DNA of 64,000 nucleotides. Origin: a virus (taxonomy: Duplodnaviria; Caudoviricetes). Position 1 is the stretch's first letter; every line of letters begins with the position of its first letter. Shown in pieces: positions 4,397 through 60,316 of the stretch. The position numbers were made by a program, and so were the translations under genes. The notes beneath the pieces were generated by a model. The model was given only the letters and a program-made list of their open reading frames with translations, was not told the origin of the DNA and did not search any database. The DNA lies in IMG/VR virus record IMGVR_UViG_3300011008_000002. One strand, written 5' to 3'.

Positions 4397-4861
4397 TTAA
4401 GAATTCAACCTGTTGCTGATTTCTGTGAGTGCATAACTGATATCTGCGACAGCTCTCTCAAGGACATCGAGTCTACCACTAAAGGAATTAATCAGTTTTG
4501 TAGCTTCAGCTGTATCCATCTCCGCTGCGATGTTATACAACCTTGATCCGTTGTCTTCATTTGCAAAGTATCCCATTTGCTGAAGATCCTTTATAGTCTT
4601 ATCCGTAATCAGCCATTCAGTCTGAGGGTCATTCCTGTCATCATCGGACAAACTTTGATATGTATCCCAAGTGCAGCACTTCTTCCTAACAATAGCGGTG
4701 TTAGTATTAGTTGGCATAGGATTTTTCATATCGTTGATGATGTAAACAACACCCGGATTATTCTTTTCGGCTGTGGATAACTTTTCATAATCGGCTGAGG
4801 AGATGGCTCTATTCCGAATACCACCGCCACCACCAGATCCGTTTAAATAAGCGTATCCCAT
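4397..4861 (-). CDS. Hypothetical late protein with two Y..LS..E/D.N.P repeats
   Basis: RBS AAGGAG; late promoter at 4916-4928; internal repeat. Confidence 0.7.
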   Translation of the reverse strand: MGYAYLNGSGGGGGIRNRAISSADYEKLSTAEKNNPGVVYIINDMKNPMPTNTNTAIVRKKCCTWDTYQSLSDDDRNDPQTEWLITDKTIKDLQQMGYFANEDNGSRLYNIAAEMDTAEATKLINSFSGRLDVLERAVADISYALTEISNRLNS

Positions 4862-4915
4862 ACTTTCAGTCTCCTTTCTTAATATTTTTTAATATACAAA
4901 TTAGATACACTGAAT

Positions 4916-4928
4916 TTATATTTATGTT
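4916..4928 (-). promoter_or_regulatory. Late promoter motif
   Basis: Minus strand AACAtaaataTAA. Confidence 0.65.
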
Positions 4929-5005
4929 CAAAAACACCATAGTATTGCCCTTGGGAGCATAGAAAAATACACACAATAATTTTTATTTATAAAAATTTTC
5001 ACCAT

Positions 5006-5018
5006 AACAAAAAAATAA
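5006..5018 (+). promoter_or_regulatory. Late promoter motif, or U-tract of a minus-strand terminator
   Basis: AACAaaaaaaTAA directly before a structured ORF-free region. Confidence 0.4.
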
Positions 5019-5280
5019 TCTGAAGGTAAGCTTTATGTTTGCCTCAGATAAATAAGGAGTCAATTAGCGAACACAAGAGAGAAATCGAACATTAGGAGAG
5101 CAGTGATTCCGCCGAGGGTTATAAAATAAGATGGGTATGCCGTGTGGAGACCAATACCCGGGGTTGGTTAGCGGTAATAGGATACCTTGGTGGGCTGTGG
5201 TTTTGTTGCGATGGGAGTGTTCAAAGTTGACGTAGAAAGAGGAGAGGGACATCGGAAAAGAGCCGGTGTCCCTCCCTTTG
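5018..5280 (+). ncRNA. Candidate rod-shaped (6S-like) structured RNA
   Basis: Nested stems 5059-65/5225-31, 5069-74/5217-22, 5084-87/5209-12, 5088-91/5204-07, 5100-04/5194-98, 5109-17/5185-93 and 5133-38/5154-59. Terminal hairpin 5244-5274. GC-richer than flanks and no credible ORF. Confidence 0.6.
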
Positions 5281-5294
5281 TACTTACAAAAAAT

Positions 5295-5330
5295 AAACCC
5301 CTGTCAATAAAATAACTTTGACAGGGGTTT
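5295..5330 (-). terminator. Intrinsic terminator hairpin
   Basis: Perfect 13 bp inverted repeat followed by ATTTTTTGT on the minus strand. Confidence 0.75.
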
Positions 5331-5512
5331 GCTTATTTAGAACAATACCAACGGTTTGTCTGAGCTAAATATATCATCAAGCTCATCTGTATTGTGGATG
5401 ATACCACTATCGTCCACACCAAGTCAACATAGTTAGTTACTGTTTTAATGTGGTCAGTCTCCACAGTGAATGGGAACATAGTAATTCCCGTTGTTTGTCT
5501 TATGTATACAGA

Positions 5513-5523
5513 TTTAGTATAGT
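5513..5523 (-). promoter_or_regulatory. Early promoter motif variant
   Basis: Minus strand ACTATACTAAA, one mismatch to ACTATATTAAA. Confidence 0.4.
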
Positions 5524-5569
5524 ACTAAAATAGCTGCGAAACGGAATTTTGGTTATAATATAAAAAATG

Positions 5570-5594
5570 AAAGAGGGATGATAAATCCCTCTTT
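5570..5594 (-). terminator. Intrinsic terminator
   Basis: AAAGAGGGAT/ATCCCTCTTT hairpin plus T-tract after the 5602 stop. Confidence 0.8.
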
Positions 5595-5601
5595 CTTGTC
5601 T

Positions 5602-6795
5602 TTATCGAATCATCTCTGCAACAAACAATGAGAACGCCATACAACCTTGCTCCATGATTAGTGAATATGCTGGTTCAGCACCATTCTTCTGAACTAAGAA
5701 ATACACCACCAACGAAACTTCCCGTTCTGTCAGATTTAAACCTATCAGAGCGAAATCTTCTTTGGTTCTTTTGATTACTGACTTTGCAGTGACTCTACCA
5801 ATATTGGGAATTATCATATCGTTATCAGCGTTCACTTCATCTATTGATTCGATACATCTATGAATTTGATCACGAATATTTGAAATCCCACCGCTCTTTT
5901 CGAGATAGTCATTGAATTTACTTTCGTTCTTATATTCATACCGCTGCATATATGAGTTAGTGGTTGAAATGAATGATGCACTGTATAACCGATCCATAAA
6001 TTCGTTATTCTTAACCTGATAACACTTATGAAATTCTCCCTTCGGGATCATGACAATTTTTCCTTCTGACATAGCATCCAAATCATACCACGCATCCACT
6101 GCAAACAGAGCGTTATAATGCATTCGATTATCTCCTGCATATAGTATTTCATTGGTTCTCGTATCAAGTACAACCATAGGAACGTTCATGGGATCATTCC
6201 AGAATTCATCACAATCAAGGAGTTTACTCAGTACAATTCTTCCAACTTCATAATAATTACCACTACCTTTCATATATGGTTTATTGTATATATCCTGTTG
6301 TTCTTGTGCATCTCCCTCTGTCTTGAAGATGTCAACCAAGAAGATTTCGCCGTTTTGCCTATAGAATAACATATAAGCAGAGAACAATCTGTTACTCAAT
6401 GGTATTTCTTTAATTCCTCTACCTTTGCATTCTTTACAAGGATGAATTCCATCTGCATCAATAACTGTACCGGAACCTGAACATCTTTCGCATAATACAT
6501 GGTCAAGTGCCATATCCATGATGTCATATCTGGAACCACTGTATACCTTTTGGAATTTTCCCATCATATCCCTGAATACGTTATCAGGATAAGTCGAATC
6601 ATCACCCAAAGTTCTCAAAGTATTGGCATAGAATATCCTGTCTTTGACAACTTCCATAGATGCAATTTCATGGTTACAATTCGGGGGATTTACTTTACAC
6701 CCCTGAGCATGAGCACATAGTTCACACATAGGCATTTCACCATCAAGTTTTGTTGCATCATCGAATACATCAAGATCTTGCACTAATTTCATCAT
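5602..6795 (-). CDS. Hypothetical protein with DnaJ-type CxxCxGxG zinc finger
   Basis: CERCSGSG and CKECKGRG; extra N-terminal Cys cluster; RBS AAGGAGG. Confidence 0.75.
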   Translation of the reverse strand: MMKLVQDLDVFDDATKLDGEMPMCELCAHAQGCKVNPPNCNHEIASMEVVKDRIFYANTLRTLGDDSTYPDNVFRDMMGKFQKVYSGSRYDIMDMALDHVLCERCSGSGTVIDADGIHPCKECKGRGIKEIPLSNRLFSAYMLFYRQNGEIFLVDIFKTEGDAQEQQDIYNKPYMKGSGNYYEVGRIVLSKLLDCDEFWNDPMNVPMVVLDTRTNEILYAGDNRMHYNALFAVDAWYDLDAMSEGKIVMIPKGEFHKCYQVKNNEFMDRLYSASFISTTNSYMQRYEYKNESKFNDYLEKSGGISNIRDQIHRCIESIDEVNADNDMIIPNIGRVTAKSVIKRTKEDFALIGLNLTEREVSLVVYFLVQKNGAEPAYSLIMEQGCMAFSLFVAEMIR

Positions 6796-60054: not shown

Positions 60055-60067
60055 AACATTGATATAA
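60055..60067 (+). promoter_or_regulatory. Late promoter motif
   Basis: AACAttgataTAA before an ORF-free structured region. Confidence 0.6.
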
Positions 60068-60270
60068 TCGTCTGCGAACTAGGGCATCTTCCAATGTATA
60101 AACGGATAAGAAGATGTCTTTAAATCGACGTTTCGCTAGAGATTACGGATGTCAGAAAAGAAGAGATTGCGTTATAATTGAGGATTCGAAATATGACCTC
60201 TATTCGGGTATGCACTCGGGAGAATAGCAAAAAATGAATTGAATTCGTAATCAACAAACCCTAGCGGAAT
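60066..60270 (+). ncRNA. Candidate ~200 nt multibranched late ncRNA
   Basis: Closing stem tctg/cgga plus ctaggg/ccctag; internal stems 60083-91/60110-18, 60127-32/60148-53, 60165-71/60246-52, 60180-83/60197-200 and 60200-05/60222-27; own promoter and terminator. Confidence 0.65.
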
Positions 60271-60282
60271 AAATATATAGAA

Positions 60283-60316
60283 GACTGAGGAGTAGTCATA
60301 ATACTACTCCTCAGTC
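60283..60316. terminator. Bidirectional terminator hairpin
   Basis: Perfect 14 bp stem between convergent units. Confidence 0.8.

Follow-up and report, generated by a model that had tools for sequence, protein, structure and literature searches.

The results of the analysis suggest, with a probability of about one half, that positions 5006-5280 of the window (the whole 64-kb stretch of viral DNA that was analysed) contain a strain-specific late transcription unit that is devoid of an ORF and would produce a stabilised non-coding RNA. A discrete phage RNA from the plus strand, as had been proposed in the initial annotation, is plausible from the predicted promoter, the 5′ hairpin, and the terminators. 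The RNA would belong to no described family, 6S RNA included; the 6S label under which it had been annotated does not hold, and the analogy is unsupported.

The virus record comprises 229,126 bp and is 97% complete, and the window corresponds to C1:164958-228957 on its minus strand. By its sequence, the phage appears to be an uncultured gut relative of Bacillus phage AR9 with two multisubunit RNA polymerases (RNAPs). Comparisons were made with four related records, three of which (G001, G002, and G003) are near-complete and have an RNAP beta′ identity of 74-82% to this phage. Searches for further relatives with the flanking proteins, an RNAP alignment, and a DUF6273 alignment returned the four known records again and no others.

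Two genes on the minus strand flank the 740-bp gap (4862-5601) that houses the unit. There is no plus-strand gene upstream of it, and it is therefore free-standing. One of the flanking genes encodes a 154-aa protein with no family match, for which no closer kin was found among 5.8 billion proteins. The other (5602-6795) encodes a 397-aa protein with a CXXC zinc motif. In this protein, the CXXC..CXXC motif spans the residues 88-130. The protein gives weak matches to DnaJ-type zinc fingers and one to a PHROG with the annotation antitermination protein Q-like (E 2e-5), and the identity to its homologues in G001 and G002 is just 23-34%. Genes for a DUF6273 protein, a lysozyme, and a PARG/YpsA pair are close by, which marks the locus as part of an accessory region.

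In AR9, the late promoters have the sequence AACA-N6-T[A/G], the last base of which is the start site, they are used by the non-virion RNAP, and they include non-coding and antisense ones (PMC5312081). An exact copy of this motif is found at the head of the unit, and its recognition by the non-virion RNAP is predicted. Many intergenic copies of the motif are located 4-66 nt upstream of a Shine-Dalgarno (SD) sequence and a long ORF in the genome, and a weight matrix was trained on 18 such promoter+SD+ORF sites of the same genome, the promoter of the 154-aa gene being one of them. When about 458,000 genome positions were scored with the matrix, the 5006 site ranked 13th, and the top 17 matches were all intergenic (17/17). 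Sites with the score of the 5006 site numbered 15, as compared with 0.2 in shuffled intergenic DNA, and the chance of finding such a site inside a 740-nt gap is about 0.008 (p). With a late-promoter motif as sharp as this, ORF-less late units can be predicted in this phage. The features of the unit and its surroundings are collected in the table.

Table. Predicted features of the late unit at 5006-5280 and of the surrounding gap (window positions)
Feature	Positions	Strand	Remarks
Late promoter of the 154-aa gene, conserved (AACATAAATATA)	4917-4928	minus	left edge of the ancestral DNA
AR9-type late promoter (AACAAAAAAATA)	5006-5017	plus	predicted start A5017
5′-terminal stem-loop, 6+7 bp	5018-5049	plus	starts 1 base past the predicted start
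SD-like AAGGAG, STAB-SD-like	5054-5059	plus	+38 to +43; not followed by a start codon
Irregular rod of seven nested helices, G-rich	5059-5231	plus	minimum-energy fold; closes the apical domain
Purine-rich apical domain, 67 nt (earlier ‘bubble’)	5118-5184	plus	weak, ambiguous folding
Terminator T1, 12+5 bp hairpin and weak U tract	5238-5279	plus	listed by the consensus scan
Terminator T2, bidirectional	5298-5330	both	would stop late RNAs that pass T1; main stop of the convergent early unit
Conserved early-leader hairpin (GGGAA..UUACUAUG..UUCCC)	5472-5489	minus	its ATG opens a chance 48-aa ORF (5479-5333)
Copy of the clade’s early-promoter block	5500-5550	minus	predicted to drive an ORF-less early unit of ~230 nt (about 5525 to 5290)
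Terminator T3 of the 397-aa gene	5569-5595	minus	-17.6 kcal/mol, z -5.6

Both ends of the unit carry strong hairpins. The stem-loop at the 5′ end has a folding energy of -16.1 kcal/mol (z -5.6), which was equalled by 0/200 shuffles, and its pair probabilities are 0.90-1.00. It is followed by the SD-like AAGGAG, and the next 15 nt contain neither ATG nor GTG nor TTG. At the 3′ end, the hairpin of T1 has an energy of -29.1 kcal/mol (z -5.7) and a single G-U pair, to which a C-A mismatch corresponds on the minus strand. T2 folds on the plus strand with -21.5 kcal/mol (z -7.0) and on the minus strand with -19.8 kcal/mol (z -5.7), the better U run being on the minus strand.

On neither strand of the unit was there an ORF that is preceded by a ribosome-binding site or has the codon usage of a coding sequence. 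The plus-strand frames are soon closed by stops (3/3), and the plus-strand ORFs have codon scores of -0.05 and 0.14, as compared with 0.20-0.44 for real genes; the score of a 62-aa minus-strand ORF over the rod is -0.39. A decayed gene or pseudogene was considered and rejected, as tblastx of the gap found promoter blocks only and the codon scores are non-coding. In these respects, the initial annotation was borne out: its AACA-N6-TA motif and its terminator-like hairpin were recovered at 5006-5017 and 5238-5279, respectively, and the lack of an ORF backed by a ribosome-binding site was confirmed by the frames and the codon usage.

The body of the unit has a GC content of 50-52% and a GC skew of +0.4 to +0.5, in a gap with otherwise 23-27% GC. 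The G fraction of the rod region (0.37) is the highest of all non-coding 150-nt windows genome-wide; the phage genome has 37% GC and its coding strand 22% G.

As had been annotated, the minimum-energy fold of the plus strand has exactly seven nested helices at 5059-5231, namely 5059-5065/5225-5231, 5069-5074/5217-5222, 5084-5087/5209-5212, 5090-5091/5207-5208, 5093-5097/5201-5205, 5100-5104/5194-5198, and 5109-5117/5185-5193. The mean pair probability is 0.92-1.00 in five of the seven helices, and the fold of the rod region (5053-5236) contains 52 pairs (21 G-C, 20 A-U, and 11 G-U). For the whole of 5006-5280, the energy is -93.4 kcal/mol on the plus strand (z -5.8) and -60.2 kcal/mol on the minus strand (z -2.8); the z of -5.8 is owed mostly to the 5′ hairpin and the terminator. 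When the rod (5053-5236) was folded alone, the z on the plus strand was -1.75, and 8/200 shuffles were equally good. With 600 shuffles, the energy p was 0.04, and 1.2% of the shuffles reached an equal span and pair count. The z of the rod on the minus strand was nearly the same (-1.65), which means that the lower energy of the plus strand with its 11 G-U pairs reflects G-richness and is not a strand-specific signal. Thus, the G-U pairs that the initial annotation had emphasized do exist and do lower the plus-strand energy, whereas the strand specificity read from them did not stand. The arms, which were picked post hoc, gave z values of -4.0 (plus) and -3.3 (minus) against shuffled arms. Watson-Crick pairing holds for the outer helices on either strand, and with DNA folding parameters neither strand beats shuffles (z +0.5 and +0.2); a DNA cruciform was rejected on this ground. 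The predicted rod is well defined thermodynamically and statistically marginal, given its choice from 64 kb.

The domain at the tip of the rod (5118-5184) folds with -12.5 kcal/mol, no better than shuffles (z +0.38). Its pair probabilities are 0.2-0.7, the hairpins GGGUAU/AUACCC and GACCAAU/GUUGGUU are mutually exclusive, and no stable terminal stem is predicted. The residues 5119-5132, annotated before as one side of a central bubble, are indeed unpaired in the predicted fold; the bubble itself turned out to be not central but a terminal, weakly structured domain. Measured against shuffled controls, the folding therefore stands firmly for the end hairpins, marginally for the rod, and not at all for the apical domain. 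The segment 5166-5180 includes a 9-nt match (GCGGUAAUA) to the universally conserved 530 loop of 16S rRNA; chance alone would yield about one match of this kind, and we regard it as a coincidence.

We searched for homologues of the unit at several levels. With Rfam, there was no match at the gathering score in the whole window, including the models of 6S RNA, pRNA, Y RNA, riboswitches, and ribozymes, and at E<=10 there was no match in 4800-5700 nor in the 281 nt of 5010-5290, so that the claimed resemblance to 6S RNA found no counterpart in any model. No tRNA or tmRNA was found. There was no homologue by blastn among 50,697 phage records, nor in the phage’s own genome and the four relatives, and six exact 20-22-mers had no match elsewhere in viral, metagenome, and genome collections. 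A single-sequence covariance model of the unit (47 pairs) recovered the query alone in its own genome and nothing in the four relatives, and it did not match the relatives’ G-rich non-coding islands with the filters off. Since no homologue was found, there is no alignment for covariation and no evidence of selection. Neither a long complementary stretch nor an antisense target was found in the phage genome, and a search for direct repeats, CRISPR-like units, and terminal repeats with target duplications gave weak two-copy matches at most. Some further candidates were tried and rejected. The cumulative skew gives no signal of a replication origin here, and the UA-N6-UGUU motif expected of an RNA mimic of a dU template-strand promoter is absent. 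As for partner RNAs, the genome has no TROVE/Ro60 match for a Y RNA-type RNA, and the TnpB zinc-ribbon match for an omega RNA-type RNA is only 15-bit, sub-threshold, and far off.

The comparison with the relatives showed that both flanking genes are retained in unchanged order in G001 and G002, and the 154-aa gene in G003. In all three, the gap consists of the late promoter of the 154-aa gene, which is conserved, and a short spacer with one bidirectional terminator, and the late unit is absent (3/3). A 21-28-nt block at that promoter is identical in G001 and G002, and the single gap terminator of the relatives has the position of T3. As the gaps of G001-G003 hold the promoter and the terminator only, about 575 bp (about 4990-5565) are an insertion that is private to this phage relative to these three. 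In its ancestral state, the gap had one bidirectional terminator; the insertion contains an early and a late unit, which are ORF-less, converge, and have terminators in common. Because all known relatives are without the unit, the RNA is probably an accessory, recently acquired element and not a core function.

The early promoter of the inserted DNA is one of at least eight copies of the block in the genome. The block also occurs in G001-G003 and always stands before an SD sequence and an ATG on the same strand; the copy in the gap is one base off the family core. The family is ~45 nt long and consists of an upstream box (AAAATCCGTTTCGCAG) and a downstream part (TTTTAnTACTATATTAAATCTGTA), often with a conserved leader hairpin (GGAA..TTACTATGTTCC) 25-35 nt further on, in which the ATG leads into short, unconserved ORFs. 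Copies in C1 of this genome (G000) are located at 157219-157176, 136991-137014, 29660, 86877, 11431, 68703, and 200301, and more were found in G001, G002, and G003. Repeated promoter blocks of this kind could serve as recombination handles for cassette swapping. The early unit is predicted to end at T2. The codon score of its 48-aa ORF is 0.04, which is within the range of spurious ORFs, and behind other promoter copies the ATG of the same leader opens ORFs of 8-19 aa only. There was no evidence for complementarity between the early and late RNAs, as the duplex energy was no better than that of shuffles (p 0.69).

G-rich ORF-less late units were also found at other loci of the relatives, at 157197-156956 of G001 (minus) and at 64365-64590 of G002 (plus). 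Both open with the 15-mer AACATATTTTTAGAG and have strong terminators at their ends, and they have little else in common.

If the preferred reading is correct, the non-virion RNAP would start at A5017 from AACAAAAAAATA, and transcription would end at T1 near 5280, giving an RNA of ~265 nt; transcripts leaking through T1 would end at T2 near 5340. A 5′ stem-loop followed by an SD sequence without a start codon is a classic 5′ stabiliser against RNase J-type decay. The ends seem designed to keep the RNA stable in a Gram-positive host, with the stem-loop one base past the start and an exposed AAGGAG behind it, and the 3′ end would be protected by the -29 kcal/mol hairpin. According to the predicted fold, the seven-helix stem would close and display the loosely folded, purine-rich domain of 67 nt. 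The RNA may act in trans late in infection, with the apical domain as a sponge or decoy platform for a protein or an RNA; this step is pure inference, and the one observation that speaks for the apical domain as the working surface is the lack of an antisense target in the phage. Counterpoints to this scheme are the weak U tract of T1, the marginal z of the rod on both strands, the apical domain with no significant fold, the absence of the unit from G001-G003 between conserved flanking genes, and the failure of all searches to find a homologue. A bolder version is that late G-rich decoy RNAs form a fast-evolving repertoire of AR9-like jumbo phages and that this one uses its apical domain to trap a polymerase (host sigma-A RNAP or the phage’s own virion RNAP) or a sensor of host defence, so that it would do the work of a 6S RNA without being related to one, which we consider very unlikely.

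The main rival of this reading, possible and on balance rather unlikely, is that the unit is a neutral remnant of a cassette that recombined in at the repeated promoter and terminator blocks. Its RNA would be transcribed from the late promoter that was kept and would have no function, the rod being chance or a decaying inverted repeat in G-rich filler. The absence of the unit from all relatives, the lack of homologues, and the z of the rod of about -1.7 on both strands are what one would expect of such a remnant, and so are the several other ORF-less late units in the same genome and the mismatched early promoter. The AAGGAG, furthermore, is at the place where late genes usually have their ribosome-binding site (+38), with no ORF behind it. 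It is difficult, however, to derive a G-rich body of 50% GC from decayed coding DNA of this phage, given its composition; the frames are all closed with codon scores at or below the spurious range, and the hairpins at both ends are intact and very stable. Coding in a stricter sense, i.e. a tiny plus-strand protein translated via the AAGGAG from an unusual start codon or through a recoded stop, is hardly credible. The SD sequence is perfect and its distance from the late promoter is the usual one, and reading through a TAG would yield a peptide of ~55 aa with a hydrophobic tail, but this needs an ATT start 3 nt past the SD sequence plus stop-codon read-through in a genome that is ~88% coding under the standard code, and the plus-strand ORFs score below real genes.

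The convergence of the early and late units on a common bidirectional terminator raises the question of whether the late RNA is an antisense or insulator of the early unit, similar to a type I toxin-antitoxin system. By running past T1 and T2, it would silence the early transcript or the 48-aa peptide, or block early read-through into the 154-aa gene. The 48-aa ORF includes a single stretch of moderate hydrophobicity, and AR9 late promoters can drive antisense transcription (PMC5312081), yet an overlap of the units would require leakage through T1, the RNA-RNA duplex energy is no better than that of shuffles, the ATG of the ORF is within the conserved leader hairpin and the codon score is spurious, and for interference of a simple kind 220 nt of G-rich sequence would be superfluous; we find this improbable. 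A type I toxin-antitoxin pair proper was rejected, there being no overlap, no duplex signal, and a spurious ORF. A decoy in the manner of 6S RNA, whose rod and open bubble mimic a melted promoter and sequester host sigma-A RNAP or phage virion RNAP, is very improbable. The phage has its own RNAPs, the rod of ~173 nt is of the right size with paired ends, and a large A/U-rich open region lies between G/C-rich helices; this region is terminal, however, with no stable terminal stem predicted for it (z +0.38), and it agrees with the early-promoter core at ~6/21 positions when aligned to the consensus. The 6S models match nothing in the unit even at E<=10, late expression is ill-timed for a host shut-off, relatives with the same RNAPs have no such RNA, and the rod is barely above chance with no homologues for covariation. 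Finally, an element acting at the DNA level or during transcription, such as an R-loop (e.g. an accessory replication origin) or a palindromic site for protein binding or recombination, can be given very little credence: the GC skew right behind the promoter, the AT-rich flanks, and the outer helices that are Watson-Crick on both strands would suit it, but the folds with DNA parameters are no better than shuffles, the cumulative skew has no origin signal here, and the relatives are without the element.

The useful results of the analysis are that the 6S label fails, that the phage has a 575-bp phage-specific insertion, and that the late-promoter motif is predictive. A single unconserved locus with a marginal predicted fold gives no basis yet for a functional claim. 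If the RNA is real, it would add to the signs that AR9-like gut jumbo phages have several gene-less late RNAs with fast turnover, and, if this is true, small RNAs would be a part of the accessory ‘moron’-like gene pool of giant phages.

Among known systems, 6S RNAs are rods of ~180-200 nt with a central bubble that mimics an open promoter, and they bind housekeeping sigma-RNAP. The unit resembles bacterial 6S RNA (SsrS; RF00013 and related) in its length of ~170-190 nt, in the pairing of its ends into a long irregular stem, and in a large open A/U-rich region with G/C-rich helices around it. It differs in that it has no model match, that its open region lies at the apex, where no stable terminal stem is predicted, and that the unit is unconserved, phage-encoded, and late. 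The pRNA of phi29 is an early RNA of the small phi29-like phages. Like this pRNA (RF00044), the unit would give a phage RNA of ~170 nt with paired ends that is encoded near a genome end; unlike it, the unit has no model match and neither a three-way junction nor a loop-loop pairing signal.

The cry3A 5′ stabiliser of Gram-positive mRNAs illustrates the STAB-SD principle (PMC4113751). The likeness consists of a 5′-terminal stem-loop and a strong SD-like sequence that starts no translation; here, an AAGGAG is present near the 5′ end with no start codon, and the frames are closed. The cry3A-type elements stabilise mRNAs, whereas the body of this RNA would be non-coding and a stabilising effect is predicted from the sequence. 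The other ORF-less late units (60055-60316 of the window and those of G001 and G002) have no sequence or model similarity to the 5006-5280 unit; they share with it a late promoter, often a 5′ hairpin, ~200 nt free of ORFs, a terminator, and fast turnover. By analogy, they would raise the prior for transcription of such units, and they say nothing on the function of this RNA. In comparison with the late units of AR9 (PMC5312081), there is no gene downstream here and the phage is uncultured and only AR9-like. AR9 is likewise a jumbo phage with two multisubunit RNAPs, and the unit resembles the AR9 late units in its promoter motif, a predicted start on the last A, an intergenic location, and a hairpin terminator behind the unit.
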